Source of the DNA: Ginglymostoma cirratum
Taxonomy: Eukaryota
Assembly: GCA_024137785.1 (NCBI GenBank)
Contig: JAHRHZ010000024.1
Location: forward strand, 33,154,644-33,218,643
Length of the DNA: 64,000 nt
Reading direction: 5' to 3'
The translations under genes were made by a program, and so were the position numbers. Under the pieces are notes generated by a model. It saw only the letters and a list, made by a program, of their open reading frames with translations, did no database searches and had not been told where the DNA came from. Numbering within the stretch: the stretch's first letter is position 1; each line of letters opens with the position of its first letter. Positions 6,528 through 63,685 of the stretch are shown one piece after another.

Positions 6528-6886
6528 TTTCTTTTTCTTTATTCATTCACCCGATGAGGGTGTCGCCGGCCAGGCAGCATTTATTGCCCATCCCTAATTG
6601 CCCAGAGGGCAGTTAACAGTCAACCACATTGCTGTGGGTCTGGAGTCACATGTGGGCCAGACCAGGTTAGGATGGCAGTTTCCCTCCCTGAAGGGCATCA
6701 GTGAACCAGGTGGGTTTTTCCAACAATCAACAATGGATTCGTGGTTATCAATAGACTCCTAATTCCAGATATTTATTGAATTCAAATTCCACCATGTGCC
6801 GTGGCAGGATTCAAACCCACGTCCGCAGAACATTATCTGATTCTCTGATTAACGGTCCAGCAATAATATCATGAGGCCATCACCTC
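6528..6886 (-). mobile_element. tRNA-headed SINE (head and tail shared with the tRNA-headed LINE)
   Basis: Reverse complement reads gaggtgatggcctcatga..gggtttgaatcc (A/B boxes), body, then tail gggcaattagggatgggcaataaatgc..tgaatgaataaa; homologous to 18079-18414. Confidence 0.9.
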
Positions 6887-11565: not shown

Positions 11566-12045
11566 TCAGACATGAACAAAAGTGCTAAACTCTATAAGGG
11601 AGGTGAGAGCAACCACCTTGATATCAAGGCAGCATTTGACCAAGCGTTGCATCAAAACTCTCAGCAAGATCCACTACAGCAACTCAGCAACGCTCCCCTC
11701 CAAAAGGAGCAGTGAAAGAAGGCTGTCTACCCTCAGAGATAGTAGGAACTGCAGATGCTGGAGAATCTGAGATAACAAGGTGTAGAGCTGGATGAACACA
11801 GCAGGCCAAGCAGCATCATAGGAGCAGGAAAGCTGACATTTCTGGCCTAGACCCTTCTTCAGAAAGAAGGCGGCCCTTCTTCTGGTGAAGGGTCTAGGCC
11901 CGAAACGTCAGCTTTCCTGCTCCTATGATGCTGCTTGGCCTGCTGTGCTCATCCTGTCTACCCTCACTTTGTCAAGGATAAATCTGGGGTCGGTGATAAA
12001 TGCTAGCCTAACCAGAGAAACCAACATCTCAAAAATCAATTTTTT
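11566..12045 (+). mobile_element. Deleted fragment of the tRNA-headed LINE (RT piece plus 3' tail), interrupted by a Penelope fold-back
   Basis: LDIKAAFDQALHQ RT motif; tail gataaatgctagcctaaccag matches the SINE/LINE tail. Confidence 0.7.
11736..11953. mobile_element. Penelope family A fold-back element with two opposed hammerhead motifs
   Basis: Minus arm with tail 11736-11865, plus arm 11880-11953; 13-bp TSD ctgtctaccctca at 11723-11735 and 11954-11966. Confidence 0.92.
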
Positions 12046-17244: not shown

Positions 17245-18078
17245 AAGCATACATGCTGTCTTTTCCTGAGTTTACTTCTGAAGATCAAATGTAAAATTAC
17301 CACACAGAAGCATTTAGGAGAAAAACCAGTTACAAAGAGCCCAAAAAAGGTCTGCAGTGAGTGAAGGATATTTTTGTTTCGCATGTTATTGGTGGGCAGA
17401 GGATGTGGGGTCTTTGATTCTCTGCTTAGGAATTTATTTCTTGCAGCATCGTGGATAACAATGAGAAGTAACTCTCAGATTAATGGAGAGCACCTAAGAA
17501 TGTATTATTTTCTTTATCTAATTGGTAGAACAAAGCATGACTAATTACTGCCTTCAGTCATCTACAGTCATTTGTCATGCCCATTTACTGGTGTCTCACT
17601 ACTTAGTAGAGAAGAGCAGGAAAAAAAACAATAAAAATATTTTTGTCCATTTTAAATCCTAGTTCTTCTATGCTGTCAGTTTCTTCAGCAGCAGCAAATC
17701 ATTGCATGCATTGTGGCCAATAACAATATGAGGGATCAGTGTTAGCAATTAGAAATTCATCTACATTCAGTTAATGTGAATTCTTCAGGATCCCATCAGG
17801 AAATTAGATTCAGGAAAATTAGCATGCAACTCAAACTCATTCCAGTATATTAAAAAGGGTGGAAAAAAAAAACAGATGTCTGCTAGAATCAAACCCAGTT
17901 GAGAACAGGACCATGCACTGTCAGTCTACTCATCTTGCTCCATTTTTAGGCTACCTTCACTCAGGAGTTTAACCAATTATTTCTGAAAAAGTTAATTATC
18001 TGATAAGATACATGTGCTTGGTACTGATACTGGAACATTTGGCTAAATGTAATATTTCACAGGGAAGAAAGCAAAACA

Positions 18079-18414
18079 GGAGGTGATAGCCTAGTGGTAT
18101 TATCGCCAGACTATTAATTCAGAAACTCAGTTAATGTTGTGCGGGCTGATGGCAGATGGTGGAATTTGAATTCAATAAAAATCTGGAATTAGGAGACTAA
18201 AGATGGCCAGGAATCCATTATCAATTGTTGGGAAAAACCCATCTGGTTCACTAATGTCCTTTAAAGAAGGAAACTGCCATCTTTACCTGGTCTGGCCTAC
18301 ATGTGATTCCAGACCCACAGCAATGTGGTTGACTCTTAACTGCCCTCTGGGTAATTAGGGATGGACAATAAATACTGGTCTATCCAGCAATACCCTCCTC
18401 CTATCAATGAATAA
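18079..18414 (+). mobile_element. tRNA-headed SINE (B box deleted in this copy)
   Basis: ggaggtgatagcctagtggtatt head; body-to-tail junction tgccctct|gggtaattaggg is the same as in the 6528-6886 copy. Confidence 0.9.
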
Positions 18415-18427
18415 TTTTTAAAACAAG

Positions 18428-20870
18428 CAGATAGGGAATTTGAATTCAACAAAAAAAAAAATCCAGAATTAAGAATCTATTGATGACCATGAAACCATTA
18501 TCAATCGTCAGAAAAACCCCATCTGGCACACTAACGTCCTTTAGGGAAGGAAATCTGCCATCCTCATTGAAGTAACTCCAGCAAGGGTGATATCCTATCA
18601 CCAAGTCATCCTTCATTTACATGTGGAGAGTCCTTGACACTGATCCAGCTCCCTCAGAGCCAGCTCCAAGATTGAACAGATTGTCTGTTTATGCCTATCA
18701 GCCAGAGCTCCCTGATTGGGGCTGTTATCCTGGTCCAAACAGGGAAATCACATTCTATGAGGTCCACCTGGCTGATCTTGTTATAATCACTACTCACTAG
18801 GTGTGGCCTATGTGATTCCACAGCCACAACCATTGGTTGACTCTCAACTGCCCACAGAACTGGCCTAGCAAGCCACTCAGTTACAACAATCGCTATGAAG
18901 TCTCAACAAAGAAAGCAAACTAGACAGACCACCTCACCTAGGCATCGGAAATGGAAATGACAAAAAAACAACCCTGTCGAACAGGCAAAGTACTCCTTAC
19001 AAAAATGTGGGGGTTAGTGCCAAAATTGGGATATCTGTCTCACAGACTAATCAAACAACAACCTGACATTGTCTGTTTCTGTAAATATGACTATGTTCCA
19101 GTCACTGCAATCACCATCCTTGGATATGTCCTGTGCTACCGGCAGGACAAATGCAGCAGAGGTGGCAGCACAGTAGTATACAGTCAGGAGGGAGATGTCC
19201 CGAGAGTCCTCCAGAGCCTAGAAGTTCATGGTATCAGGTTAAACATGAACAAGGAAACATTGTGCTGATTACCACATACCGCATTCCCTCAGTTGATGAA
19301 TCAGTATGGCTTCACACTGAACGGCACACTGAAATTGGCAAGGGTGCAAAATGTACGCTGGGTGTGGGGTTTCAACGCCCACTATCAACAATGGCTCAGC
19401 AGTAACACTACTGATCAAGCTCATTGGATTCTAAAGGACATAACTGCTAGATTGTGTTTGCATCAGCTGATGAGAGAACCAACAAGAGGGAAAAGCGTAC
19501 ATATCCTTACCAATCCGCCAAATACAAATGCATCAGTCCATAACAGAATCAGTAAAAGTGACCACTGTACAGTCCCTGTGGAGATTAAGTTCCATCTTTA
19601 CATTGAGAACAGCCTTTATTCAAGACTGGCCACCTATGAGACACTGCTGGCCATCAACATAACACAATCTGCAACAATCATGGCCTGGCATATGCCCCAT
19701 TTAATCATTACAATCAAGCCAGGGGATCAACGCTGGTTCAATGGAGAATTAAGGAAGGTATGCCAGGAAAGGCCTCAGGCATACGTTAAAATGAGGTGTC
19801 AGTCTGGTGAAGCTATCGAACAGAACTGCTTGTGTACCTAACAGCATAAGTAGTAAACGAGAGGCAAAGTTAAGTGATCTCAGGACGAACAGATCAGATC
19901 TGAACTCTGAAGTTCCGCCACATCAAATGTGAATGATGATGGACAATTGAATAACTCACAGGAAGAGAAGGGGACTCCACAAATATCTCATCCTCAACAT
20001 ATCAATACAAAAAAATAAGGATGAAGCAAAATTTTGCCAGAAGTGCTGAATGGATGAACTATCTTGCTCTTCTACAGTGGTCACTGATGCCAGTTTTCTG
20101 CCATTCAATTCACTCCATGGGGTATCAATAAATGGCTGGAGCACTAGATACTCAAAGGCTACAGGCTCTGACAACATTTCAGCAATAGCACTGAAGACTT
20201 GTGCTCCAGAACTTACCATTCACGTCATCAAGCTCTTCCAGTACATTTATAACACTGGCATTGACTCAACAATATGGAATATTACTCAGGTATGTCCTGT
20301 ACACAAAAAGCAGGACAAATCCATCCTGGTCAGTCGTGAGCCCATCAGTCTCCTCTCTACCATCAGTAAAATGCTGGGAAGTGTCATCAACAGTGCTATC
20401 AAGCAGCAGCTACTCAGTGACACCCAGTTTGGGATCCACCAGGGCCACTCAGCTCCTAACCTCATTACACTCCTGGTTCAAACATGGACAAAAGAGTTGA
20501 ATTCCAAAGGTGAGGCAACAAGCCCTTGACTTCATAGCTGCATTAGACTGAGTGTGGCAACAGGGAGCCCTAGCAAAACTGGAATCAATGGGAATCAGGG
20601 GGTAATTTCTCCACCGGTTGGAGTCATATCTAGCACCTAAGTCAGTCATCTGCACTCCAATACCTATCTCCAGGAGTTCCTCTGGGTAGTGTCCTTGGGC
20701 CAACCATTTTCAACCGCTTCATCAATGTCCATCCATCCATCCATCACGAGATCAGAAGTGGGAATGTTCACTAATGTTCAGCACAATTTACAACTCCTCA
20801 GATAATGATGCAGTCCATGTTCAAATGCAACAACATTTGGACAATATGCAACCTCAGGCTGACAAGAGGC
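18428..20870 (+). mobile_element. CR1-group LINE with SINE-like 5' UTR and a single decayed APE+RT ORF
   Basis: KVLLTKMWGLVPKL..QQPDIV and GFNAHYQQW (APE); KATGSDNISAIALKTCAPEL..PISLLS..QFGIHQGHS (RT); 5' part colinear with the SINE body. Confidence 0.9.
18568..18793 (-). mobile_element. Probable solo LTR inserted in the LINE 5' UTR
   Basis: ~225 bp insert interrupting ccatcctcac|ctggtctggcc; ends tgaagtaac..atcacta(c); 4-5 bp TSD ctcat/ctcac. Confidence 0.6.
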
Positions 20871-20894: not shown

Positions 20895-21250
20895 TTACAG
20901 TCAATGATAAATTGCTTCATCATGTGAAGAGGTGCAAATAGTAACGAGCATTGTGCAATCATCAGCGAATATCCCCACTTCTGACCTTATGATGGAGGTA
21001 AGGTGTCTGATGAAGCAGCTAAAGATGGTTTGGCCAAGAACACTACTTGAGCAGTTTCCTGCAATGATTGGCTGGCTCCGAGACGATTGACCCTCGACAA
21101 TCAACGGCCATCTGCTTTTGTATAAGATATGCCTCCAACCGGGGAGAACTTTCTTTCTAATTCCCACTGACTTCAGTTTTGCCAGGGCTTCTTGAAGCCA
21201 TATTTAGTCAAATGCTGTCTTGGTGTCAAGTGCCATCACACCTACCGGAG
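20895..21250 (-). mobile_element. Inverted RT fragment of the same LINE family
   Basis: SVLGQTIFSCFI..IIRSEVGIFADDCTM. Confidence 0.85.
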
Positions 21251-21974
21251 TGCTTTTATTTAAGTGATTAGTGTTTTTCCAAAGCTTCAGTTGAAGGAAT
21301 TAAGCAGTTTTGCACTTAAACAGGGGAATTTATGATTCATTCATTTTATAGACAAGGAATCCTGCAACACCCACGAGCCCCCAAGCCTTAATAGTTGAAC
21401 TTTTCCCAAGCAAATGAAGTCTCACTAAAGATGGGCAATTTTGGAGATTACAGTGGTCTGGTGTGTGGTGCCCAATCTTACGGACTGAAGAATGGCCTTG
21501 ACTTACTCTCCAGCCAGCATCTGAAGGGTTACTGGAACAGCATTAGGCTAAAGCAGGAAGGGAAGTCAAACTTGTGTTATTTATCTTTTCCAGCCAGCTG
21601 CAGCAGTGGAAAGAAAAATTGGAGACTCAAGTTTTTTTCTTATCTTATTCTAAGTTAATATGAATGGTGCCATGTATGTATGACGAAGGTACATACTTTC
21701 CACTGTAGTTTTACATTGAATACACGTGACAATAAATGATTCAATAATCAACCAAATGCTGACTTAGTGTCAAGCATGCACACACTCACCCTACCTGAGT
21801 GCTTTTGTTTAAGTGATTAATATTTTTCCAAAGCTTCAGTTGAACAAATTAAGCAGCTTTGCATTTAAACAGGGGAATGATTCATTTTATAGACTGGGAA
21901 TCCTGCAAAATTCATGAGCCCCCAAGCCTCAATTGTTAAATTTTCCCCAAGCAAATGAGGTGTCACTAAAGATG
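21209..21974. repeat. Local direct duplication of ~225 bp (21209-21433 and 21753-21974)
   Basis: Shared blocks gtgctttt..taagtgatta..tttttccaaagcttcagttgaa..taaacaggggaat..gagcccccaagcct..aagcaaatga..tcactaaagatg. Confidence 0.9.
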
Positions 21975-29500: not shown

Positions 29501-30444
29501 GCAGAAGTATGCAAATCATAAGTGTTCCTGAAGTACAATGTTGAAGGATTAGTGATGTGAGATCTGTGCTCCAGCAGGCATGATGAGGTGGTGAGACGGG
29601 TGATTTGCTGATGTCAACTCATGTGGGCAAAAAGTTGAGGAGGATGGTGGTAATGGAGCATGCAGGAGGGACATTGCTCTGAAAACATAGTTGGATGATA
29701 GCCACGAAATGAAATCGGTAAACTGCTGCCACCTCGTACCAGCTGGATTTAAAGGTCAGGAACGTGCGCTACCAGTTTCTCCTGAAAGGGAAGGAGAATT
29801 GAAAGAGTCATAAAATAGAGGCAAGTTGGGCTATTAATGTTTGCAAATGCAAGGAAATAAGATAGATGTCCCTCAGTACAGGATTCTGAAATCACCATTT
29901 AAAGCTCAAAGGGAAAATTGGAAAAATTTTTCTCAACATTGAGATTCTGAATTTTTTCATTCTTAGCCTATTTCTGCTTTTCTTGCCAATGTCCATACAG
30001 AACAGAGAGGGGAAGGCCTCATCTGATGTTTCAATCTGCACATTCGCATTTCTTTTTCTTTCCTTTGATGTTTTTATTAATACTGCATGCCACAGTTCAA
30101 AACAGCATGACAGTATGCATGGAGCTCACGGGTACTTATGTTTGAAATACTAGTTTCTAAACAAAAAATGGTAAGTTTGAGCCCCTGTCTCCGTTAGGGT
30201 TAAAGCAACAGGAAGGTCTGAATGGGGAGCTATAAAGAAGGGGAAAACATCCCACAGCAGAGCAAGGAATTAGCTAATTTAACAATAGCATGGCTGCAAA
30301 ACTGTAGCTTTAGGCAAATTACTGCAGTGAGTCACTGGAAGGCACAAAATTGGCATTTCACAAAATGAAATTCTTTTCTCAATTTTCTGCTCTCCCATTG
30401 CTGACTTGACCTGCGACTCACTCCATATTGTAGATATAACTGGG

Positions 30445-30915
30445 CAGGGACTGGACCAGGGAGGAAAGTCCAAGTCAAGGTAAGAAGAGATGAATTCTGT
30501 GAGGAAGGTGCAGACAGAAACAATGGATCTGCCCAGGCAGACCTGTTTGTGAATCTTAGGAAGGAGGCAGAAGCAAGCTTTGTGGTGCTGGGGGACTGTC
30601 AGCTTGGAGGTGGTGGAAGGAAGAGATCGCCAAATCAAATGGGGCTCGTGACCATGGTTGACACAATGGCCTGATGTTCTATCGTGATCCAAGTGGAGAT
30701 AGGAGGAGGTATCTGAGAGCTGGCGCTCAGCCTCTGCAATGTAGATGTCAGCCTGCCAGACCACAACAGCACCAGCCTTATTGGCAGGCTTAATAACAAA
30801 GTTAGGGTTGTATCTGAGAGCTCAGAATGCAGTCAGCTCCCAAGAGGATAGGTTGGAATGAATAAACGGAGGCAGGGAAATTGAGGTGACCAATGTCACA
30901 CTGACAGTTCTGAAT
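30445..30915 (-). mobile_element. Penelope reverse transcriptase N-terminal fragment
   Basis: VIKPANKAGAVVVW..YIAEAERQLSDTSSY..LLPKIHK..GRSIVS..TEFISSYLD. Confidence 0.88.
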
Positions 30916-31977
30916 GAACTGACTGTTCATCCTTTGCAAGTCCAGCTAACAGCCAATGGCGAGCCATCTGACTGAAGGAGGCATCACAAGGGAGCAGACA
31001 CATGCCCTCCTTCCAATTGTTCATGTTGGCACACTCTACTGGTGGGACAACGAAGAGTAGGTACAAAGTAACCCCTTGCTAGCCCAAGAATTTGGAGGTC
31101 CACAATAACTCCACTACACAGTCCAGTGCAGAAAAGTCAAGAGCAGGAGCATATCACAAGACTTTTTTGGTCTGTATCATAAATGTGGTGTCTTTCTACA
31201 TAAACCGCTGAAGCTCTTCAGAGGAATGTTTTTCAATCTACTCAAAGTGAAATGTTGTCAGGCTAGAATTCATAAAAACATGCAGGGGGACACTTGAGAG
31301 TGAGCAACAAAGTATTGATGCCAGTGTTGAGAGACGGAATTAATTGCAATAAATGTCATTTTCTGCACTGTTATAACAATGAAATATCTGATAACAGGCT
31401 GTCGACATAGTTAATAAATTACTACCTAAAAATCACAATGAATGGGTCTTCTAGAAAAGACAAACAGGAAACCATTTCTGCCCAAGCAATTATTCTTTGT
31501 CTCTAATGATCTACCCAGTGCTTTCGGTTCAAATGCCTGGCGTTTACCCCACATAACACCTCTGTTACAGTTTTAATGCATTTTCTTTTTCAGTTCCTCT
31601 GTGGAAAATTTTGTTACAAACGCAATTTACTACTTAACAATGAATACCATGTTCAATACACGAAGAAATAAAGATCTGAGGATAATCATGTTACACCACT
31701 CCTGGGAAGTACTGTGATGCTGTAATTGTAATTGAGCAGTGCCAAGTCCTTTTTTCCTCAATTGTCTTCACACAAGACTGGCCTTTTGAAGGAAAGTACA
31801 AAGATGTGAATTCCACTATAGTGATAGAACGATCAATACACTGAGGTCCAGACAATGCTGCTGGCGTTATTGTAAGAATCAGCATAATTAGAATGAAGAG
31901 GTGGGAGAAATTACTGACATATAGAAACAATATTGCTGGAGAAATTCAGCAGGTCTAGCAGCATTTATGGAGAGAAA

Positions 31978-32908
31978 ACCGATGTCCATTTCAAGCACAC
32001 TGACTCCCACAGCTACCTGGAATACACCTCCTCCCACCCACCATCCTGCAAAAATGCCATCCCCTATTCCCAATTCCTTCGCCTCCGCCACATCTGCTCC
32101 CAGGATGAGACATTCCACTCCCATACATCTCAAATGTCCTCATTCTTCAAGGACCGCAACAACCCCCCACAGTGGTCGAGAATGCCCTCGACCGTGTCTC
32201 CTGCATTTCCCGTAACACATCCCTCACGCCCCGTCCCCGCAATAATAACCAAAAAAGAATCCCCCTCGTCCTCACGTACCACCCCACCAACCTCCGGATC
32301 CAACGCATCATCCTCCGACACTTCCGCCATCTGCAATCAGACCCCACCACCAAAGACATTTTTCCCTCCCCACCCTTATCTGCCTTCCGGAGGGACCACT
32401 CCCTCCACGACTCCCTTGTCCGCTCCACACTCCCCTCCAGCCCCACCACACCCAGCACTTTTTCCTGCAACCGCAGGAAGTGCTACACCTGCCCCCACAC
32501 CTCCTCCCTCACCCCAATCCCAGGCTCCAAGAAGACTTTCCACATCAGGCAGATGTTCACCTGCACATCTGCCAATGTGGTATACTGCATCCGCTGTACC
32601 CATTGTGGCTTCCTCTACATCGGGGAAACCAAGCGGAGGCTTGGGGACCGCTTTGCAGAACACTTGCGCTCAGTTCGCAACAAACAACTGACCTCCCAGT
32701 CGCGAACCATTTCAACTCCCCCTCCCCTTCCTCAGACGACATGTCCATCCTGGGCCTCCTGCAATGCCACAGTGATGCTACCCGAAGGCTGCAGGAACAG
32801 CAAATCATATTCAGCCTGGGAACCCTGCAGCCCAATGCTATCAATGTGGATTTCACAAGCTTCAAAATCTCCCCTCCTCCAACCGCATCCCAAAACCAGC
32901 CCAGCTGA
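31978..32908 (+). pseudogene. Penelope ORF C-terminal part, two frameshifts (~32165 and ~32690)
   Basis: Three overlapping track ORFs (31933, 32172, 32480) join into one RT-thumb/GIY-YIG protein ending QNQPS*. Confidence 0.88.
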
Positions 32909-33192
32909 TCTCCACCTCCCTAACCTGTTTTTCCTCTCACCTATCCCCTCCTCCCACCTCAAGCCACACCCCCATCTCCTATCTACTAACATCATCCCGC
33001 CCCCTTGACCTGTCCGTCCTCCCTGGACTGACCTATCTCCTCCCTACCCCCCCTACCTACACTCACTTTTACTGGCTCCATCCCCGCCTCTTTGACCTGC
33101 CTGCCTCCTCTCCACCTATCCTCTCCTCTATCCATCTTCTATCCGCCTCCCCCTCTCTCCCTATTTATTTCAGAACCCTCTTCCCCTCCCCC

Positions 33193-33228
33193 ATTTCTGA
33201 TGAAGGGTCTAGGCCCGAAACGTCAAGT
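33193..33228 (+). ncRNA. Minimal type I hammerhead ribozyme motif
   Basis: AUUU-CUGAUGA-A-GGGU(CUAG)GCCC-GAAA-CGUC-AAGU; 4-bp stem I, predicted cleavage after 33224. Confidence 0.8.
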
Positions 33229-35525
33229 TTTCCTGCTCCTAAGATGCTGCTTGACCTGCTGTGTTCATCCAGCCCCACGCTTGTTATCTCTGACATTTCA
33301 AGTCCGGTGAATTTCAGTCCTTCTTGAGAACTGAATGCAAAGAAAATTAGTACCTAACCTCATTAACTCCCCAGGATTGTTGGTTTTTGTAGAGGGCAAT
33401 CAGAACCAGAATACACTGCAGCTTGGGAGCGGCTGCAGCAAAAAGCATTCATTGATGGTTTCAAAAAGAGAAAGGAGAGACATGGTAGTAGAGGCAGAGT
33501 GGGAGGAGACACCCTTAGACTATTAGTGGTGGTTTAAACTGGTTGAGCCATTGAGCCATTTGGCCTGTTTCTGTTCTGTAAAGTCCATAAGCTGCACTTG
33601 ACACAACAACATTCACAGTAGTCTGACAGAAGTAATAAGAAGGTTGAGCAGACGTTACATTTCTTTATCAAAAATGAGGAGTGAAGTGCATTATGCTGAT
33701 GAGATGGTACATGTCATCACAGTAAGTGATACGATGTCACATGATTATTCTCAGTCTCTTGCAGCCTTTTGGCAAGATTAAGATGCAGTTTTTAAATAAA
33801 GTTAACATCTTCTTTAACTCAGCAGATGGTAAATATTTTTCAGGAGCTCCACAAGATCAAAATTATTATCACATTAAGCATTTGAATCCCTGGATTTATG
33901 TTTGAGAGACATGATTTTGTTTGCTGCTCCAAAACTGATATTCTTAAACTTCTAAAATCCCTTTAATAACTGAGGGCTGTGAATGGAAGTAAACAGATTG
34001 GTAAAGTACTAAGCTAAAAGATGGTCACACTTCATACACCGTCTCCTCATACATGCAGCTTGGAAACAAATATCAGACAAGGGCAAATGAACATCAATGC
34101 TGAAACTGTCATGGAGTCAGATGACTGAAGATGCTTCAAACTGGCAGGTGGGGCCTAAAGCCAGGATTCTCATTCCCCATTACCATTTCTATCAATTTTC
34201 ATTGGTTGGGGATAACAGTGTAGATGTCAAACCACCCATCTTTGCTGCCTCCATTATGGGATTAAGATCTTTAAAGCCCCTGTAATTTTAGTGGAATCGG
34301 ACCTCTTCAGTAAAATGTGATTCATTTATATGTCTATCTGAAAGACATGGACAATGTCGCAGACTGCAGGGAGAGGTCTGCTCTCTCTTCCAGTGAATGC
34401 TTAGAGGAACGCTGTCTAACAGCAGCTTGGATTACACCTATAGTGGGGCCCTGAAGTGACACAGATACAAAGTAAAATGGGATATGCTCTTATACCTTCA
34501 GAATACAGTGTGCACGTTTCCAGTAAAAACAATAGAAATGAGATGATTTGGGAATTAATAATGCCCAAGAGAAAGTTCTGGGTCATTCACAAAAGGTGTT
34601 GGGACAGGCAGAAGGATACAGCAACTGTTAAGGGCTAAGCGGTGCGACAGAGTGTTAAAAAGTCAAATATCACTAGTGCACACATTGAAATTAACCTCGT
34701 ATCTGCAGGTAAAGCAACCTTTGATGAGGATCAACTGCAGGCTCAAAATAAAATCGTGAAACTTCGGTACAGAAGAGGAATGTACTAAACAAATCATTAA
34801 GAGTGCAGTGAATGAAAGCAGATAAGCATAACTTGCTCTTATCTGTACTCTAAATGAAATTTACTTCAGTTCAACTGGGCTGCTAAAATGGAACACAGTT
34901 ATGAATAAATGCAAAAAATTCTCTTTTTTTGTGCACCATGCTATCATTATTCCTTATCAGATTCATTTTATGCTACATATGACAAGCAAAAGCACAGCAG
35001 GAAGGGAAAACAAAAGCTGTAATTGATAACACAATAACTCGGTGCTTGCTTAACTTGAGCTCAATCCTCACTTCCCTGAAACCAACCCCAGCTCCAATCT
35101 CAGATGGCCTTCTCCAAGCCAAAACTGCAGCCATTCTGTTAAGGGCTATCAGCAGAAACACAATCACATATCACAACATAAGCATCTTCTTGATGCCAAA
35201 ACCCACACAACTGATTCTAAAATGAGTCTGACATGTTACTCTGTAGCAAACCAACAAGAATTCCTTGAACCCGATCTCTGAACATGCTCACACTACAAAC
35301 TCTTCAATTCCGTCTCCAAACTGTAATGATCAGTTTTGTCTGTAATTGAAACATAGTTTGGAGCATTCTATTTGCTTCATCTTTGTTCCACAGAGATTCA
35401 AATGCTTTGCAATTCAAACTATTTATATAAATATGTCCTTCTTTTATCCCCATTCTAATTGTTAATTGTTGTTGTTGTTGCAGTTTCATTAAGCTCATGC
35501 AAATAAAGCACCAAAAAATACAAAA

Positions 35526-37999: not shown

Positions 38000-38510
38000 C
38001 TATCTAACCATGAACAAATTCCTAAGACAAGATGACAGTCACTGCTCTTGACGTCAAGACAGCATTCGACCGTATGTGGAAAAATGGAGTCATTGCAAAT
38101 TTTGGGGTAAAACTCTCCAATAGCTGTAGCAATACTAGGCACAGAGGAAGATGGTTGTGTCGGTTGGAATTCCATCAGTGTCCTTCCCGCCATTTGAAAA
38201 TGGGGGTATTTGCTGATGATTGCAACATTTTCAGTTCCCTTCACAATGTTTCAGACACTGTGTCCACATGCAGCAAGGCCTGGGCAATGTTCAAGTCTGG
38301 AATGATAAGCTGCAAGAAACAATCAGAGGGGCCAGGCAATAACCATCTCTTTCAAGAGAAAACCTAATCATCTCCCCTTGATACTGGCACAGCTGAACCT
38401 TCACCATCAACATTTTTTTTGGGGGGGGAGGTGTTGTGGGAAAGGGGTGTCATCAATGACCACATGTGAAGCAAGACTAGTGACAAAAATACTGTGGTTA
38501 CAAGACCAGA
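38000..38510 (+). mobile_element. RT fragment of the tRNA-headed LINE family
   Basis: VTALDVKTAFDRMW..MGVFADDCNIF. Confidence 0.8.
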
Positions 38511-41487: not shown

Positions 41488-41838
41488 ACTGAGATGATCC
41501 CAACAGTGCAGAAGCAGGTCATTTGGTTCATCAAGTTCACACCAATCCTCCAAAGAGCATCCCATCCAGATCCACCCTATCCCTGTAACCCTACATTTCC
41601 CATGACTAATCCACCTAGCTTGCACATCCCTGAACACACTGAGCAATTTAGCATAACTGCACCACCTAACCTATACATCTTTGGACTATAGAAGGAAACC
41701 AGAGCACCCAGAGGAAACCCGGATAGAATGAAGAGAACGTGCAAACTCTACACAGACAGTTGCCCGAGGATGGAAGCAAACCCAGGTCCTTGGTGCTCTG
41801 AGGCATCAGTGTTAACAACTCAGCCATCATGCCACCCC
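41488..41838 (-). mobile_element. HE1-like V-SINE
   Basis: Reverse complement of the 4898-5223 / 46178-46537 family. Confidence 0.88.
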
Positions 41839-42734: not shown

Positions 42735-43690
42735 TATCTTTTGGGGTTAATGGCCAAAATTGCAGGGAACCTCAGCAGTTCAGAACGAACATCCAGTGCA
42801 TCTTGGAGATAGTACACATTGGTGTTAGGAGCATCAGTAATGGAGAGTGTGAATGTTTGAGGATGTTGCACTAGTCAAACAGGTAGCTGTGTTCTGGATT
42901 GTGTCAAGCTTCTTAGGTGCTGTTGGAGGTGCACTGATCCAGGCAAGTGGGGAGTATTCTATCATACTCCAGATTTGTGTCTTATAGTTGATGGTAAGGC
43001 TTTGGAGAATAAGAAGGTGAGTAATCATTGCAAGATTCCTAGCTTCTGATCTGTTCCTGTACCCACAGTATTTATCTGGCTAGTCCAGTTCAGTTTCTGG
43101 TCAATGGTAACAACTAGATGTTGATAATGTTGGACAGAACTGCCCGTGAATATCAAGGGACAATGATCAGATTGTCTCATGTTGGAGATGGTTACTGCCT
43201 CACATTTGACCAGCATGTATGTTACTTGACTATGTCTAAGACTTCACTTTGTTAAGGTTTTGCTGCATGTGGGCATGGACTGCTTTAGTATCTGAAGAGT
43301 TGCGAATGGTGCTGAGCATTGCACAATCATCACCCCCACTGTTGATGTGATGACGGAGGAAAGGTCATCGATAAAACAGCTGGAGATGGTTGGGACGAGG
43401 AAACTACCCTGAGGAACTTCTATAGAGATGTCCCGGAGCAGAGACTGCTAGCCCCCCACAATCACAATTATCTTCCTTTCTACTACATATTACTCCAATC
43501 AGCACAAAGTTTGACCCCAATTCGCACTCTCTCCAATTCTGCTCAAGCTCCTTGACGTCATACTTGGTTGAACACTGCCTCGATGTCAAAGGGAATTACT
43601 GTGACCGCTAGAGTTCACATCTTTTGTCCATGTTTGGACCCAAGGCAGGAATGAGATGAGGAGCCAAGTAGCGGACGCAAAATAAGCATA
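42735..43690 (-). mobile_element. tRNA-headed LINE family, RT and C-terminal part
   Basis: YKTQIWSMIEYSPLAWISAPPTAPKKLDTIQN; LVVTIDQKLNWTSQIN; VQTWTKDVNS. Confidence 0.85.
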
Positions 43691-43715
43691 GTCAAGGATC
43701 CTTTCCATTAATTCA

Positions 43716-44860
43716 GAGGTAATAGATGGCCTAGTGAAACTGTTGCTGGAATAGTAATCCGGGCACACAACTAATGTTCTTGGGACTTGGGTTTGAACTC
43801 TACTATGGCAGATGTTGGAATTTAAATTTTTTTTAAATTGAATTCAATATCAAATGATGACCATGAAATTTTTGCTCAGTTTTGTTAAAACCCAAACGGT
43901 TTACTGATATTCTTTAGGGATGAAAACTAGCTGTCCATACCTGGTCTGGCCTACAGGTGACTCCAGACCCACAGGAATGTGGTTAACTCTTAAATTTCCT
44001 TTGAAATGACAGCCGTTCACTTCTATCAACCTCTAGAAAGCCTCAAAGGAGGAATGAAACCAAATGGATTAACTACCATCAACCTCGACACCAGAAACAA
44101 CAATGGCAAAGCAGGCCTAACAACCCTGCAAAGTCCTCCGTATTGACATCTTGAGGCCAGCGCCAAAATTGGGAGAACTGTCTCACGGATGAGTAAAGCA
44201 AAAGACTGACACAGTCATACTCATATTTTACACACAATATCCTAGGCAACACGATTACTTTTTCTCCTCACTCATGGGACTTCTGTGTCACTGGATGCCA
44301 GCATTTATTGCCCATTCCTAGTTGTCCTTGGTGGTACTGAGTCAGCAGAGATGGTGGCACAGTGGCATATAGTTGGGATAGAGTTGCCCTTGGAGTCTTC
44401 AACATTGACTCCAAGCACATGAGCTTTCATGGCATTAAATCAACATAGGCAAAGAAGCCTCCTGTTGATTATCATTATAATGTGATAGTTGCGTACTTGT
44501 GTGACCTCATGCTATAGAAAATCGCGTTATAGGGACATTGCTATACGCGTACAACAGAAAGTTTGCGTTCTCCAAACAGCATCCACTATTCATCAGTTGC
44601 ACCATAACTAATTTGCATTAATTAAACATGTGTTATAGCAGAAATACCTGTACAATCAAGCTAGGGGATCAGCTCTGGTTCCATGAAAAGTGCAGAAAGG
44701 CATACCAGGATCAGGACCAGGCATACCTCAGAATCAGATGTCAACCTGGAAGCTATGATTGCAGCAGTTCATGGCTGCTCACCACCACTATCTCAAAGAA
44801 ACTATGGATGGACAAGAAATGCTGGTCCAGTCAGCAATACCCATATCTCATGAATGGATG
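43716..44860 (+). mobile_element. 5' end of the tRNA-headed LINE: A/B-box head, UTR, then APE region with deletions and insertions
   Basis: tggcctagtg (43727), ggtttgaactc (43790), SINE-like body, then aagtcctcc..ccaaaattgggagaactgtctcac matching 18978-19045; TIKLGDQLWFHEKCRKAYQ. Confidence 0.85.
44485..44652. mobile_element. Possible Tc1/mariner (Tigger-like) MITE fragment
   Basis: CpG-containing insert within the LINE ending gttatagcagaaatacctg|ta; internal gttatag / gctata repeats. Confidence 0.45.
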
Positions 44861-44864
44861 AAAG

Positions 44865-46075
44865 AAAACTTCTGGCCAAAGACTATTGCAAATGTTTCAG
44901 TCTGGTCTTTCAACTGATATGCTGGGCTTGCCCAATTACTGAGGATGGGGATATTTGTGGAGCCTCCCCCTGTAGGTACTTGTTTAATTGCCCACCTTCA
45001 TTCCTGACTAGATATGACAGGGCTGCAGAGCATAGATCTGATCCATTGTTTGTGGAATCACTTAGCTCTGTCTTTCATAGGTTGCTGATACTGTCTGGAA
45101 TGCACACAGTCTTGTTTTATAGTTTCACCAGATTGACACCCCATTTTTAGGTATTTTGGTGTCACTCCTAGCATATCCTTCTAAACTCTCCATTGAACCA
45201 AGGTTGATCTGCTGGCTTGATGGTAATGTTTCAGTCGGGGACATGCCAAACCATAAGGTTACAGACTGTGAAGGAGGACAATTCTGCTGCTGCTGATGCC
45301 CAAAGTTCCATATGGATGACCAGTTTTGAATTAATAGATTTGTTCAAAGCCTGCCCATTTTAGCATGGCAGTAGTGTCACATAATTTGATCGAGGGTGTC
45401 TCAGTGTGAAGACGGGACTTGTTCTCCACAGTGACTAAACAGTGGTCACTCCTAATGATACCATCAGATGCAGGTGCAACATGTAGATTTGAGGGGACAG
45501 GTCAAGCAAATATTCACCTCATGGTTCTCTTTTCTGCAAACCTAATCAAATAGTTATATCCTTTAGGACTTGGACAGTTTGGTCAGCAGTGGTTCCTGGT
45601 GGTGAACACTGAAGTCATATAATCATAGAATTCCTGCAGTGCAGAAACAGTCTATTCACCCCATCAAGTCTGCATCACACTCCGAAAAGCATCCTACTCA
45701 GGCCCATCCCCACAATATCCTTGTAACTCCACATTTACCATGGCTAAATCCACCTAGCCTGCACATCGCTGGACACTACGAGACAATTTAGCATGGCTTA
45801 TTCACCTAGCCTGCACAGCTTTGGACTGTGGGAGGAAACCAGAATGCCCGGTGGAAACCCACATAGATACAGGGAGAACATGCAGCTCTACACAGTCAGC
45901 CACCCAAGGCTGGTACTGACCTGTGGTGATGTAAGGCAGCGCGAAGCCATCATGCCACTAAGACCCCATCTACAGTACATCCTTCACCCTTGCTACTCAG
46001 CACTTTATCCAATATAAAGTATCAACTCATTTGCTGAATGGGAGTGATAAGTACTAATCAGGAGGTCTCTTTGCT
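44865..46075 (-). mobile_element. Inverted APE-linker fragment of the tRNA-headed LINE, interrupted by an HE1 SINE
   Basis: Reverse similarity to 19260-20000 (gaggatggggatatttgtggagcctccc; gtgaagacgggactt..cagtggtcact). Confidence 0.75.
45616..45959 (-). mobile_element. HE1-like V-SINE
   Basis: Tail atcatagaattcctgcagtg; V-domain tttggactgtgggaggaaaccaga..ggaaacccac. Confidence 0.88.
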
Positions 46076-46177
46076 CAGATTTAACCCAATGTTACCTTTT
46101 CAAACTTTGCCCCTCACCCAAGGTGTGGTGACCCCCAGGTTAAACACATCACCAGTCATCTCTCTCAGATGAGAGAG

Positions 46178-46537
46178 TAGTGTGGCACAGTGGATCAGTG
46201 GTTACCACTGCTGCCTCACAGTGCCAGGGACCTGGGTTCAATCCCACTCTCAGGCAACTGCCTGTGTGGAATTTGCACATTCTCCCCATGTCTGCGTGGG
46301 TTTCCGCCAGGTGCTCTGGTTTCCTCCCACAGTCCAAAGATGAGCCAGTTAGGTGGATTGCCATGCTAAATTGCCTATCATGTCCAGGGATTTGTAGTTT
46401 AGATGCATTAGTCATGGGAAATGCAGGGTTACGGAAATAGGATAGGGGGATGGGTCTGGGTGGGATGCTCTTTGGAGTGTTGGTGTGGGTTTGTTGGGCC
46501 AAATGACCTGTTTCCACACTGTGGAGATTCTGTGATT
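46178..46537 (+). mobile_element. HE1-like V-SINE, full length
   Basis: A box tggatcagtgg, B box gggttcaatcc, V-domain ttctccccatgtctgcgtgggtttcc, CR1-type tail. Confidence 0.92.
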
Positions 46538-48194
46538 GACTATGACAACTTGGCCTTATAACAGTTTGATAATCTGACTGATCATTTTGGTGAGAAGTTA
46601 TGAGTCAAACACATTGCTGGTAACTTTCTAATTTTCAGCTTATATCTTGGTTAATGCATCAACTTCCGTTCTGGGAGTATCCATTGATTGCTCTCCCCCA
46701 CCAACTCTTTAATTTCCCAGTTCTGCATAATTATCTGTCATAGAATTTTCAACACTGCTTGATAGTTCTGTTTAACGACTGAGCGCACCTTTTAACTCTC
46801 TGAAGCCTGACTGAGCTCCTGTTGTTTCCATGAATGTCTGATTTGTTTTAAAATTCTCAAATGCTAAGTAAAATACATCAATAGTACTCTAAGTGCTACT
46901 GAAGAACAGCACATTGGACCTGTATGCACACTTCCACTAAGAGTGCAAAGTTCCTGCACAGATTATCCATTGTGGAGATAACTGAACCCAGTGTAAGCAT
47001 GCAAAACAAAAATCGACACAACGTGCCTATTAAGGGTAAACTATTTATTATAAGTCATTCTCTCAAGGGAAATAAATTGTGTCCACAATCATTAGCTTAG
47101 CAACATATGTGCTAATGCACTATTAACTTTACAAATTGAGCTGTACAGACATAAATATTACTCCAGTGATAATAGTGCACTGCTATAAAAGATTAAGCCA
47201 TTAAAGAGTTATAAAAGCATAACTTTTCTGATATATCGCAGACAGAAGTGCAAATTCTTCATGGTTAAAGGAAGCTATAATTTTCGGCTTCATTTTGCTT
47301 TGAATTGAGGATTCATACATGGATTTGATCGCAGTTCCCTTGAGTGTTAACTCTTGAGAACAGAATATTAAAGAACTGTTGCCACCACTCGAAAGTACTG
47401 ATGTGCTCCCCATAAATATTAGCAAAGGTAATTTGCAGCAACGGTGTTCCTATTTTGAATACACATTCAGCTTCAAATAAATATTTGCACGAAAGATCCA
47501 TGCTCTTCAGTGTTATTTACAATGTGGAAGCAGTAAACAGGCCATAAACTACTTGGAATTCTCTGTGGACACCCTGACATACTTGCTTCGCAAGCAATAC
47601 CCTAGGTATTCGTGTCAACAACTCAATAACCAAAAGCTCTCATATGCTATCAAAGCAATTACTGCTTTAACCTTCAGTGCCCCAATGCAGGCTAATTTTA
47701 ACAAGATAATTCACCCCGGAGTCAATGGAATATGCAATGCAACAACAGAAAAAGGATATACTCTGTGTGGGATCACATTTTCTTAGCTGTTCTCAGCCCT
47801 TGAAAGTGTTAGGAAGAAGGATAAACAAGGCACAAAGGAACTAGCAGCATGCCATACAAAGCATTAACTGAAAAATGAAATATTGTTCCACAAAACAGAT
47901 GGAGTAATTCATTAAAAGAAGTTTTAATAACAAACTATCAATCACAGAAACGCAATGTCTACTGAAGTATCACAACATGCTGTTTTAAGTTTTGTACGCA
48001 TGATGAAAGACGCAGTAACAATCAATTTTGGGATTTGAATTTTGAAAGAGAGGAAAATGGATGCGAATCAGTTCTGCGCGTTTTTCTTTAGAGAGGTCAG
48101 AAAGTCTATTTTGAACACTGATCTAAATATATGGATTCCAATAAAACGTGACTATAGTACTCTACTGGTATAACCGTATTACGTTAACAGACAA

Positions 48195-48389: not shown

Positions 48390-49202
48390 AAAGCACTCAC
48401 AGTGTTGTGTTTGTGGTAGGCAGAGGAAACTAGTTTAAAGTTGCCCGGTATTGACACCATCTCGAATCACAACCATCCCTGAACAAACCTTGCTGCTCTA
48501 AGTGGAGATTAATTTTCTCCTTCACTACTTTCTCCAACAGATTCCCTGCCACTGAAATTAGACTCACGAGTCTACAGTTACCTGGTCTATCTCTGTCACC
48601 TTTCTCAAAGTGGAAACACGTTTGCAGTCTTCCAGTCCTCTGGGTTCTCCCGTGGCCAGAGATGATTTTAAAATCTGCATCAGAGCCCCACTGATTTCCT
48701 CCTTTATTTCCACAGCAGCCTGAGAATCAACTCATCCGGACTTGGGGATGTGTCCACTTTTAAACCCGCCAAAACATCCAATGCCTCATCGCTTCTTATA
48801 TCAATCTGCTCAAGAATTTGACAGCCCATTTTCTCAAATTCTGTACTTGCATCCTCCTTCTCTCAGGTAAAAGACAGATGTGAAGTACTCATTTAACACT
48901 CAACCGATGTCCTCTTGCTTCATGCACAGATTGCCCCCTTGGTTCCTAACTGGCTCTACTCTTTCCCTGGTTATTCCCTTCTCCTTGATACATTTGCAGA
49001 ATATCTTGAAATTGTCCATGATCTTGTCCATCAGCATTTTGTCATGCTTCCCCTTCACTCTCCTAATTGTTTTCTTGAGATCCCACCTTTCTACACTCCT
49101 CCAGGATCTCCTTTGTTTTGCTGAATTAGCGCCTGTTATACACCTCTTTTCCTTTTTATCCAATCCTGAGTATTCCTGGACATCCAGGGTTCTCTGGGCT
49201 TA

Positions 49203-52374: not shown

Positions 52375-52505
52375 ATTGTGCATGTAACTACTGCACGCGG
52401 ATTAGAACAGTTTATGTAGTCAGCTGAACACCACCTGCTCGAGGATAATTACAGATGAGGAACAAATGCAGGCCTTGCCAGCAATGATCATATCCCAGGG
52501 AAGAG
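52375..52505 (+). mobile_element. 3' tail of the tRNA-headed LINE
   Basis: cagctgaacaccacctgctcgaggataattacagatgaggaacaaatgcaggccttgccagc, whose last ~60 nt match the SINE tail. Confidence 0.65.
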
Positions 52506-54149: not shown

Positions 54150-54347
54150 ATGTGGAGGTGCCAGTGTTGAACTGGGTTAGACAAGGTCAGAAATCATACA
54201 ACACCAGGTTACAGTCCAACAGTTTTATTTGAAAACACAAGTTTCGGAGTCTTACTCTCACCTGAAGAAAGAGTAAGACTCCAAAAGCTTGTGTTTTTAA
54301 ATAAACCTGTTGGACTACAACCTGGAGTCATGTGATTTCTGACCTTG
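54150..54347. mobile_element. Penelope family D fold-back with hammerhead-like motif
   Basis: ~80-bp inverted arms (54182-54258 and 54270-54347), ~32-nt tail on the left only; ctgaaga-aa-gagt(aag)actc-c-aaaagctt (left arm has cgaaa). Confidence 0.8.
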
Positions 54348-58201: not shown

Positions 58202-59564
58202 AAGCTTTCCTGCTTCTATGATGCTGCTTGGCCTGCTGTGTTCATCCAGCCCCACACCTTGTTATCTCGGACTCTCCAGCCTCTGCAGTACCTTTTATCT
58301 CTAATACTCCAGTCGTGGTCTAGTTAATGTTACATACAGTTCCATTATAACCTCCATGCTCTTGTATTCGATGAATTTGACTAACAAAGGCAAGTATCCT
58401 ATATGACTTCTTAACCACCCTATTCAGGGTCCTGTTGCCTTCAAGGATTTGTACAATAAGGTCCTGCTGATCCTCTGTACTTTCACAGGTCCTACCATTC
58501 ATCACATGCTGTCTTGTTTTGTTAGTCATCCCAAAATGCAATGCCTCACAGTTTTCTAGAATAATTTCCATTTGCCACTGCCCCGCCAACCTGACCAGCT
58601 AATCTATATCATCCCCGTGGTCTCAGGCTTTACTCCTGGCTTTTAAACACACACTAATTTTGCTGTTATCTGTGAACTCAGTGATCATACCTCCTACAGT
58701 CATATCGAGATCATTAATGTACACAACAAACAGCAAGGGACCCAGCACTGAACTTTGTGGTATGCAACAGAGCACAGGCATTATATGTCACAAAGAAATC
58801 ATTTGACCATCACCCTTTGCCTCCAACCACTAAGCCAATTTGGATCAAATTTGCCAAATTGCCCTGCATCCCAGCTCCATTGAACAAGTTAAATTAAGAG
58901 CCATTCCATTCCACAGTGTCTCCTCACTTGGCATTTTAAAAACACAATGATACTCAATTAGCTTACAATCACATTTTGTAATGGAGAAATGTACAGTTCT
59001 GAACTTTTTAAAAAATCATTATGTTTTCTTCTATGGAATTGTCACACAAATCCTGAAACTATCAACTGTACTTTTTCCAGATCTCACCATGTACATTTGG
59101 CACACAGACTCTAGGCCAGTAACTAGTGGTTTCACATCATGGATACTGATATAAACATGTTATAATAATATCCCTTTTAACTCTTTGAGCATCCCACTTT
59201 TTGCAGAATTAAAATTAATACCTTTTTGTATCGATATTAGAATATCAATGGTGCCAATACATCAGATATCTAAAACTGTCAAAGTTAATCAACCTTTAAA
59301 AGGAAATTGCTAACTCTAAAATTAAAATTCTTTATCAAAAACATTATTTGGGTTATCAGCGCGATGGTAAAATATTGTGCCTCTACTTTGGGGATCTGGT
59401 ATCATTATTTCAATTGTTTTTTTGGAAGTGTCTACTTGCAGAGGGGAAGGTTTCTATCTATTTTAGTCTGAGAGATTTTGCTCCAGGAACAGGACTTATT
59501 TCAGTCCACACAAAACCGTGTCCTGTGACTCTGACCAGTATTCATCATCATATCTCAATAATTC

Positions 59565-61160
59565 TCACAGCATCGCAAAGACGTACAGCACAGAAAAAGG
59601 CCCTTCATCCCATTAAGTATGCACCAGTCAAAAACAATCACCGAATTATTCTAAATAAAGACCGAAAGAATTGTGGATGCTGTAAATCAGGAACAAAAAC
59701 AGAAATTGCTGGGAAAGCTCAGCAGGTCTGGCAGCATCTATGGAGTTCTAAGGAAGGTCACTCGACCCGAAATGTTAACTCTGATTTCTCTCCACAGATG
59801 CTACCAGACCTGCTGAGCTTTTCCAGCAATTTCGGTTTATGCATCTAATTATTCTAACCCCATTTTCTAGCTCCTGGCCCACAGCCTTATGTACTTTGGC
59901 ACCACAAGAGCACATCTAAATACTTCTTTAATGTTTGAGGGGTTTTGCCTCTATCACTCTTGTAGGCAGTGAGTTCCAGATTCCTACCATCTGGATGAAT
60001 AAGTTTTTTCCTCACATGTCCTCCAAACCTTCTGCCCCTTACCTTAAATTTATGCCCCAGCTATCGATCCTTCCATTAAGGGAAAAGTTTCTTTCTGTTT
60101 GCCATATCTATGCCTCTCATAATTTGAAACATCTTAATCATTTCCCCTCTCAATCTCTGTTGCCCTAAGGAAAACAACACCAATCTGTGGAATCTCTTGT
60201 CACAACTGAAACTGTCTAGCCCAGGCAACATCCTGGTAAACCTCCCATGCACTCTCTCCAGTGCTATCACATCCATCTTATAATGTGGATTTCCGAACTC
60301 TCACAATACTCTAGTTGTTGCCTAACCAATATTTTATACAATTCCAACTTAACTCGCCTGCTCTTAAACTCTAAGCCTCAGCTAATAAAGGACAGGATAA
60401 TATCTGCCTTCTTCATTACTTTATCCACTTGTCTCAGACTAGAAGGCATAAGTTTAAGGTGAGGAGTAAGTGGTTTAGAAGAGATCTTAGAAAATTGATT
60501 TTTTTCACCTAGAGGTTGGTTGAAATACGGAACATTCTGTCCGAGAGGGTGGTAGTGACAGGCACTCTCATAACATTTAAAAAGCACTTGGATGAACACT
60601 TAAAATACCAGAGCATAATCGTTTATGGACTAAGGGCAGGTAAATTAGATTAGTGTAGCTTGTTGGTCGGTAGAGAGGCCGAAGAGTCTGTTTCTATCTG
60701 TATGACTCTATGACCTATACTGATATCTTATGGGACTGGTGTACATGCACACCAAAGTCCCTCTAATTTTTGGAACTTTCCAAGTTCCTATCGTTCATCA
60801 TGTATTCTCTTGGCTCGTTTGCCCTGCCCAAGTGCTTCACCTCACCTTATCTAGATTGAATTCCATTTGCCACTGATCAACCCATGTGACCAGCTCACCT
60901 GTATCCTCCTTTAATCTAAGGCTATACTGCCCAGTATTTTAGCAATCTACTATTTGTCACCAATTTTTGAGAACTTACAGATCAACTGCCCTACATTAAA
61001 GTCTGAACCATTCACATAAATCATAAGCAACAAGAGCCCCAACCACTGACCCTTGTGATCCCAATGGACACAGACGTCCAGTCAAAAAAATACCCCTCAA
61101 CGATCACTCTCTGCTTCCTGCCACTCAACCAATTCTGGATCCAATTTTCCAAATTTCCTT
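59565..61160 (-). mobile_element. CR1 3' portion with nested inserts
   Basis: MDVIALERVHGRFTRMLPGL; contains a plus-strand CR1 3' end at ~60435-60713 ending tatgactctatga. Confidence 0.85.
59655..59841. mobile_element. Penelope family B fold-back
   Basis: Minus arm with tail 59655-59745, plus arm starts ttctaaggaaggtcactcgacccgaaatgtt; TSD aattattctaa at 59644-59654 and 59847-59857. Confidence 0.88.
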
Positions 61161-61189
61161 TTGACCTTAGTCTGACTGTGTGTTCAGAT

Positions 61190-62448: not shown

Positions 62449-62829
62449 AGTATTGCTTTATATCTGTGTACATATTGCTTCAACTGCTTCCTAAGCTGAA
62501 AGATGTTGTGCTTCTCTTTTTTCCAGACACTGTCACCTCCAAATCTTGCACATCAGAAATATGATTCCCAAGTTTATTGTACCTTCAACCTCTGCATCAT
62601 CACGTAAAGTATGAATATTCTGGTGTTTATTTTTCAGGTCACTTGTTGACTATTCCCTTCCTTTGTGCTGCATATCTTTGCCTAGTGATTTGGGCTTTCC
62701 ACAAGCACTGCAGCTTGATTGTTACAAAGGATATTTTGTCCTATCTGGGATTACATGTGGTCATCCATAGGGCTCAGACAATTTTCTCTCCATCTGGCAT
62801 GTGGTCTTTGTTGCTATTTCATGACATCA

Positions 62830-63685
62830 ACCCTGATTGGAATGTAGCAAATATCACCTCACTATTTAAGAAGAAAAGGAAGAGACATAAGGGGAAACTA
62901 CAGACCTGTTATTTTAACGTTAGTTGTCAGGAAAATGTTTGAATCTATGAGAAGGAATGTGATAAATATACACTTCAAGAATAATGATTGACTGGGCAGT
63001 GATGATTGTGAATGGGAAATTGCGGTTAATGAACCAGTTGGGATCATTTGAGGATGTCACTGGCAGCATCGATGAGGGGGAGCATCCTTGGATTTTCAGA
63101 AGGTTTTTGCTCAACACTAAAGCTCATCGGATTGGAGGTAATGCATTAACATGGATTAACGATTAACCAACAGGCAGAAAACAGAGTGTATGAATAAATG
63201 GGTCAGTCTTCCACTGCCAGGCTGTGATTACAGGACTACTCCAATGATCAGTACTTAATCCCCAGCTAGTCACAATTTAGATCTGGACACAGAAACCAAA
63301 TGTAATACTGCCAAATTTGCAGATTACACAAAGTTAAAAGGTAGAAACGCATGTTCAGAAGATGAAAAATGGCTTCAAGGAACTTGGACAAATTTAGTGA
63401 ACGAGCAAGAACATGGCAGGTGGAATATAATGTGAAAAAAATGTGACGTTATTCTATTGGGTTCTGAATCTTTGGAATTCTCAGAGAGTGGAATTTCACA
63501 GAGGACTGTGGAAGCATGTCATTATATAATGTTTCAGGTAGACATTGATACCACTGACATAAAGGAAGAATGGGGATAACATGGGATAAAGGTATTGAAA
63601 TGGAAATGGAAGATCAGACAAAATTGTATTGAACAGTGGACCAGACTCAACAAGTTGAATGGGCTACTCCAGTTCCTATCCTTTT
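62830..63685 (+). mobile_element. CR1 RT to 3' end, deleted and decayed
   Basis: DWNVANITSLFKK; FEDVTGSIDEG; IGGNALTWIND; aaatttgcagattacacaaag (KFAD.TK). Confidence 0.85.

Follow-up and report, generated by a model that had tools for sequence, protein, structure and literature searches.

Does a tRNA-like head standing directly in front of a LINE endonuclease belong to that LINE, and could it have served as its promoter? The question is raised by one locus in the 64,000-nt stretch of Ginglymostoma cirratum DNA analysed here (contig JAHRHZ010000024.1; hereafter the window), where an earlier note had proposed a LINE whose tRNA-like Pol III head runs straight into a single APE-RT ORF. The element, copy A, occupies 43716-44870. 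Its parts and the sequences that surround it are the following, with the evidence in brackets:

43716..43812, plus strand: head that resembles tRNA(Thr, AGT) and has a long extra arm (relaxed ARAGORN, likeness to S2, published consensuses)
43727..43737, plus strand: A-box-like motif with one departure (sequence)
43790..43800, plus strand: B-box-like motif, decayed, a conserved C being T (sequence; by eye, 6 of the 7 consensuses have it intact)
43813..44020, plus strand: conserved 5' body, common to the LINE and its short derivatives, not a Deu domain, with a private T8 at 43827 (alignment)
44021..44129, plus strand: remaining 5' UTR; it contains an upstream ATG (44054)
44130..44420, plus strand: decayed N-terminal part of the APE endonuclease (tblastn of P0003, P0004, P0005 and P0011)
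44258..44346, minus strand: fragment of a family tail in antisense, lying as an insert in copy A (blastn of tails, E 8e-6)
44595..44756, plus strand: part of the linker between endonuclease and RT (tblastn with P0031, E 4e-11; 77% identity to 19709-19816)
44757..44870, plus strand: putative ORF end and A-rich 3' tail, a tail that also ends S1 and S2 (same ORF-end-plus-tail unit at 52400-52497)
44869..45500, minus strand: upstream portion of the host copy, which belongs to the same family (end of the endonuclease, and linker)
42830 (approximately)..43715, minus strand: RT portion of this host copy

By the general consensus patterns for A and B boxes, the motifs named in the earlier note at 43727 and 43790 are indeed A-box-like and B-box-like, the latter in a decayed state, and the anticodon and variable-arm segment that it described between them is present as a stem-loop reading AGT followed by a long extra arm. 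ARAGORN at its default setting called no tRNA in this head, and Rfam returned no tRNA or ribozyme either in the window or in the heads of copy A and S2. When the threshold was relaxed (ps 84 or lower), a tRNA-Thr(AGT) was called at 43719-43810 and flagged 'possible pseudogene', at a setting that also gave calls in 8 of 1000 shuffles and at 12 places in the window. Since the default ARAGORN and Rfam searches were blank, the decayed head of copy A is, taken alone, only weakly tRNA-like. It shares 72% identity with the head of S2, a short element described below.

About 330 nt of UTR and then an endonuclease had been claimed downstream of the B box, and this layout was borne out: the endonuclease starts at 44130, where family proteins could be aligned, among them P0004, which matches 44073-44222 and 44221-44412 (E 9e-10). 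In copy A these 330 nt are all that lies between B box and endonuclease, so that, as had been claimed, there is no room for an ORF1, including the esterase-type ORF1 that the text of PMC13343379 gives as canonical for CR1. The single APE-RT ORF of the earlier note is not found in copy A. Its reading frame is broken by stops, frameshifts and large deletions, and RT is absent, the linker (to 44756) jumping directly to the 3' tail (44757-44870). Runs of T8, T5 and T4 at 43827, 43869 and 43880 lie within 90 nt past the B box, and copy A is today unreadable through by Pol III. The element is a dead copy of an elasmobranch Zenon LINE with internal deletions. Copy A lies on the plus strand, nested within a minus-strand copy of its own family, and the host lacks about 330 nt at the junction. 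The presence of three family pieces at this one spot (42830-45500) suggests an insertion preference or recombination. No clear target-site duplication was found around copy A; matches of 6-8 nt, within chance, were seen only near S1 and S2. Short A-rich runs, now decayed, follow the common tail at the ends of both copy A and S2.

Further members of the family in the window were identified as follows:

18428..20790, plus strand: copy B, headless, with body, insert, UTR, endonuclease and RT to mid-domain (alignment)
20913..21287, minus strand: inverted RT fragment behind copy B
18080..18420, plus strand: S1, a short SINE-like derivative made of a head with the B box deleted, body and tail (alignment; in reads, a B box precedes the body)
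6539..6886, minus strand: S2, a second short SINE-like derivative, its head complete and followed by body and tail (alignment)
52400..52497, plus strand: 5'-truncated 3' end of the family, with putative ORF end and tail (E 8e-7 to the 3' end of copy A)

Copy B had been put forward as a second instance of continuity from UTR to ORF, which would set a chance SINE insertion aside. The continuity from body through UTR to endonuclease stands, with a local score of 156 between copies A and B where the best of 500 shuffles reached 40; for the UTR past the body alone the score is 54, reached by none of 1000 shuffles. The head does not: copy B begins just past the B box position and carries a foreign insert of about 230 nt at 18568-18797. 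Because copy B is headless, the linkage of head to ORF is seen only once in the window. The insert has no second copy in the window, yet reads and contigs cover it deeply, which marks it as another repeat. S1 adjoins the headless copy B (18080-18430), an arrangement that could reflect tandem insertion or a template switch. The inverted fragment at 20913-21287 overlaps copy B in its RT coordinates and would be a separate copy or a rearrangement. Weaker family fragments were also noted, a tail-like piece at 11960-12036 and a short RT piece at 38017-38109.

The heads and bodies of S1 and S2 are 72-80% identical to copy A and to each other, after which both switch abruptly to the tail of copy A. 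They are best read as the first 290 nt or so of the LINE joined to its 3' tail. That this shared tail is the LINE's own 3' UTR is suggested by an identical ORF-end-like unit that precedes it in two copies (copy A and 52400). Neither a C-terminal profile from distant relatives, for which 44757 was not in the top 12 of 127,912 windows, nor an HMM of the last 170 residues of distant relatives picked out the unit at 44757. These profile tests did not confirm a C-terminus, and we therefore keep the assignment of the tail as tentative. Either a SINE may have passed its head to the LINE, or a headed LINE may have given rise to the SINEs. A consensus fold of the body from four window copies gave small hairpins in which 1 of 16 pairs is changed on both sides, which is not evidence of structure, and the 5' part of S2 folds no better than shuffles (z -0.93).

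Does the head recur in front of this LINE elsewhere? For comparison we used the 10 vertebrate Zenon consensuses of Supplementary Table 2 in PMC13343379, each compared over the first 400 of about 3300 nt, and judged the overall likeness of the window copy to them by eye. All seven elasmobranch consensuses open with a tRNA-like head followed by the body and UTR. They come from five species (great white, whale shark, catshark and stingray with one each, dogfish with three), so that the contiguity of head, UTR and ORF that the earlier note proposed to check on consensuses is upheld at their starts. In the first 400 nt of the two hagfish consensuses and the single coelacanth one, the head was absent. 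An 18-mer of the copy A body (43957-43974) is present in all seven elasmobranch sequences, and among the roughly 1000 rows of the table (first 400 nt each) a body motif is confined to those seven. In the HypSab and SquAca-3 rows the 400 nt reach as far as an endonuclease start equivalent to 44127-44180 of copy A. It is these seven consensuses, and not copy B, that support the head as part of an autonomous family over a chance SINE insertion.

CarCar_Zenon-1, RhiTyp_Zenon-1, ScyCan_Zenon-1, HypSab_Zenon-1 and SquAca_Zenon-1/2/3 (PMC13343379) agree with the window element, as far as their published description goes, in head, body, UTR and the start of the endonuclease, are without ORF1 and end in an A-rich tail. 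The window element likewise lacks ORF1, has endonuclease followed by RT in copy B, and ends in an A-rich tail. Protein relatives were found in whale shark (Rhincodon), Heptranchias and Mobula; the nearest non-shark matches, which are unnamed, show 52-55% identity. Scans of prokaryote, metagenome and viral collections with both DNA and protein returned no other copies. By its sequence, the window element is an elasmobranch Zenon LINE, with the placement of the RT in a clade taken from the analysis in PMC13343379. That paper's text describes Zenon and Rex1 as universally without ORF1, and Zenon as having a poly-A tail. The premise of the earlier note that CR1-group LINEs carry ORF1 thus fails for this clade, and the missing ORF1 is ordinary here.

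According to the same source, the Zenon consensuses were built by outward extension from RT seeds, and the longest genomic copies measure 2.9-4.3 kb, about the consensus length (3.2-3.3 kb in five families, 2.9 kb in one). For six of the seven families, the copy numbers in its Table 3 range from 59 to 2313, and intact ORFs are very few among them; we take these denominators to be the largely intact copies of that paper's methods. Zenon makes up 6.77% of the great white genome, 6.75% of that of whale shark and 4.4% of that of dogfish, against 0.7% in ray and skate and 0.02% in chimaera (PMC13343379), totals that probably include short forms. In the main text of PMC13343379, the words 'tRNA' and 'promoter' have no matches, and head and short derivatives go unremarked there. 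In the literature searched, neither a tRNA head on Zenon nor a Pol III-driven autonomous LINE was found described, and four family motifs are printed in none of the main texts; a Repbase or Dfam entry may exist. The Zenon family is already described, and its tRNA-like head is real, conserved and apparently unremarked.

We then considered which parts of the head persist among species, by eye in the 400-nt starts of the seven elasmobranch consensuses. In all of them the A box begins between nt 6 and nt 11, and the B box is intact in six, that of stingray being one base short. The arm between the boxes differs among species, the anticodon stem is still paired in most of them, and the acceptor stem looks unpaired. 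A full cloverleaf with paired acceptor stem, as a functional tRNA or RNase P substrate would have, was not found by default ARAGORN or Rfam in the window head of copy A, nor, as regards the acceptor stem, by eye in these starts. A variable arm and an apparently unpaired acceptor stem, with the boxes kept, are more in keeping with a promoter than with an RNase P substrate. Conservation across species, again by eye, is higher in the body than in the head, so that a key function could lie in the body.

A Pol III transcript that runs through the whole element should be poor in sense-strand T4 runs, and their number was compared with that expected from base composition. In five decayed family pieces (copies B-E and H), 6 such runs were counted in 4119 nt against 11.1 expected (O/E 0.54, P 0.056), while the control, consisting of the RT-matching pieces of other LINE fragments in the window, had 11 in 1884 nt against 7.7 expected (O/E 1.42). 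The contrast between family and control gave a binomial P of 0.04, or 0.095 when copy A, minus its two inserts, was added. For a smaller set, the deficit had a P of 0.03 against base shuffles and 0.19 against dinucleotide shuffles. The antisense strand had no deficit (O/E 0.97). All eight T4 runs that could be compared between copies, at 43827, 43869, 43880, 44226, 20032, 20707, 43376 and 43682, are private to one copy, a result that is not significant since the copies overlap so little; the runs at 20094 and 38100 lie outside this comparison. No T4 was visible by eye in the first 400 nt of the elasmobranch consensuses. The pattern is compatible with a terminator-free ancestor, the deficit being weak and no proof of one.

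Reads and contigs give a view of the family beyond single copies. Four of 24 runs were aligned at 80% likeness to 18050-20650, a region that covers copy B and S1 and not copy A. An intact-looking B box was found upstream of the body in loose ends from 1451 RNA reads and from 207 and 1166 contigs. Behind 18349, loose ends run into a longer body (850 reads, 218 and 1890 contigs), and the mixed consensus behind this position suggests a second short form besides the LINE. Read depth over head and body is far above that over the LINE-only UTR. Family RNA is abundant and covers both strands equally, and is probably passive; no pile-up of RNA-seq starts was seen over the copy B/S1 region, a result with no bearing on the polymerase.

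With respect to translation, a conserved ATG (44054 in copy A) does not share the endonuclease frame in copy A or in the stingray consensus, and is seemingly in frame in SquAca-2 (by eye, in the consensus starts). In copy A this ATG opens a short frame, 44054-44146, that overlaps the endonuclease start, possibly a vestigial mini-ORF or a recoding site. Whale-shark gene models join the ATG and endonuclease frames at differing points. A non-standard start would fit an uncapped RNA.

Which function do these observations argue for? The conserved boxes, the 5' ends at the tRNA start and the weak T4 deficit together point to the tRNA(Thr)-like head having worked as an internal A/B-box Pol III promoter of the single-ORF Zenon, a reading that on sequence evidence we rank first and judge to stand at an even balance. 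The head would be a single acquisition, dating to the common ancestor of sharks and rays or earlier and probably made when RT switched templates onto a tRNA or a tRNA-headed SINE. TFIIIC and Pol III would start at the head and read about 3.3 kb to the A-rich tail, for which a T4-poor sense strand would be needed, and the promoter, being inside the RNA, would be carried along by each full-length insertion. Translation of the uncapped RNA would be non-standard, and internal deletion of the headed LINE would yield a ready-made tRNA SINE, which could account for S1 and S2. Two general points count against this reading: Pol III transcripts are typically short and non-coding, as stated in PMC10498592, and LINE RNAs are assumed in PMC5786205 to be Pol II products.

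An unlikely alternative, though the leading one, would have Pol II start from an internal promoter in the conserved body, with the head a fixed passenger or helper (an enhancer, a chromatin opener or a stabilising 5' structure) whose boxes are kept mainly for the short forms. It would agree with a body conserved above the head and with the stingray B box that is one base short, as they appear by eye in the consensus starts, and with the insect Zenon and its deleted derivative, which are without Pol III boxes and have a presumed LINE-type UTR promoter (PMC6740152). The far greater depth of head and body than of the LINE-only UTR adds that short forms could dominate a 5' consensus. What Pol II in the body leaves unexplained is why the A box lies only 6-11 nt from the start of every one of the seven consensuses and why the long form has kept both boxes; the weak T4 deficit also speaks against it. 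The tRNA-like 5' processing that the earlier note had offered beside a promoter is less favoured than the Pol III reading, given an acceptor stem that by eye seems not to pair in the consensuses.

Such processing would have the tRNA-like head cut at its 5' edge out of host read-through RNA, by RNase P or similar, in the way that self-cleaving ribozymes act for R2 and RTE LINEs. The 5' end of the LINE does fall at the tRNA start, the anticodon stem is paired by eye in most species, and both the abundance of family RNA on the two strands, expected of passive intronic transcription, and the intronic location of 39% of whale-shark Zenon-like DNA reported in bioRxiv 443036 would suit it. With no Rfam tRNA model match on either window head, an acceptor stem apparently unpaired by eye and an S2 5' part that folds no better than shuffles (the z of -0.93 given above), we regard it as improbable. 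Least probable of all, and very unlikely in our judgement, is that the join of head and LINE is a recurrent accident, either because abundant SINEs that share the body become joined to LINE copies by recombination or template switching, or because automated consensus extension strayed from the shared body into a SINE head. A single head-to-ORF copy in the window next to a headless copy B, the far deeper coverage of the short forms and the one-off small-RNA/LINE chimeras known in mammals (PMC13174262) would be in line with an accident. Copy A is, however, a real genomic join of head and endonuclease, the seven separately built consensuses agree while their heads are species-specific, and the longest genomic copies match the consensus length, as published in PMC13343379. 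Moreover, the mammalian tRNA/L1 chimeras are rare (21 loci) and mostly half tRNAs and antisense (PMC13174262).

The closest known systems share parts of this arrangement. In Lepidoptera, a Zenon LINE likewise gave rise to a short element from its 5' and 3' ends, Persaeus (PMC6740152), which lacks tRNA homology as well as a Pol III promoter, whereas here LINE and short form are both headed. Bov-tA, CoeSINE4 and SINE2-1_ACar, as presented in PMC5786205 and PMC4494074, also join a tRNA head to a LINE 5' part and a LINE 3' tail. In these bipartite SINEs the head is found on the non-autonomous form only and the bodies are of RTE or Vingi origin only, while here an autonomous CR1-group element is headed too. 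RTE-1_DAn and related elements, LINEs of the RTE clade with tRNA-like sequence, may be a precedent, mentioned in one sentence of PMC5786205. The SacSINE1/DeuSINEs of sharks are likewise tRNA-headed with a conserved body, and the tail of SacSINE1 is ascribed to L2-2_CM, according to PMC5499810. The Deu domain is unlike the body described here, and SacSINE1 was set apart by way of the AmnSINE1/EbuSINE alignment. The candidate assignments of the body as a Deu domain and of S1 and S2 as SacSINE1 were thus rejected, the Deu alignment published in the supplement of PMC7245038 being unrelated by eye.

The window also holds other repeats. A second tRNA-headed SINE family is present in five copies of 73-76% identity (46160-46545, 41497-41835, 4901-5223, 45621-45899 and 9195-9274), which we presume to be the shark HE1 V-SINE. 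Penelope-type pieces lie at 31918-33300 and 30279-30821, with a GIY-YIG match at 32109-33005, and many short tail fragments related to them are found elsewhere in the window. Further LINE coding fragments, probably of canonical CR1, were located at 1-1200, 9341-9638, 48433-48814, 58416-58811, 61033-61161 and 62773-63268. A long, near-perfect inverted repeat at 54206-54323, matched by a microRNA model well below threshold, is probably a MITE-like hairpin.

Returning to the Pol III reading, its fullest form is that the Zenon of sharks and rays would have been expressed as a 3.3-kb Pol III mRNA from a captured tRNA(Thr) promoter, free of T4 and translated independently of a cap, would have come to occupy about 4-7% of some shark genomes, and would have given off SINEs by internal deletion. 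This we put forward tentatively, with somewhat less than an even chance of being right as a whole. LINEs are taken to be transcribed by Pol II or co-transcribed, and Pol III promoters to be a mark of SINEs, which are short and non-coding; a SINE-type head on a coding element blurs this line. If Pol III makes the RNA, it would be a natural, long and translated Pol III transcript, very unusual for a protein-coding element. The headed LINE would also offer a direct route to the birth of a SINE, by a single deletion, and the bipartite-origin model presented in PMC5786205, so far for RTE and Vingi, would be extended to the CR1 group with the parent LINE of the body in hand.
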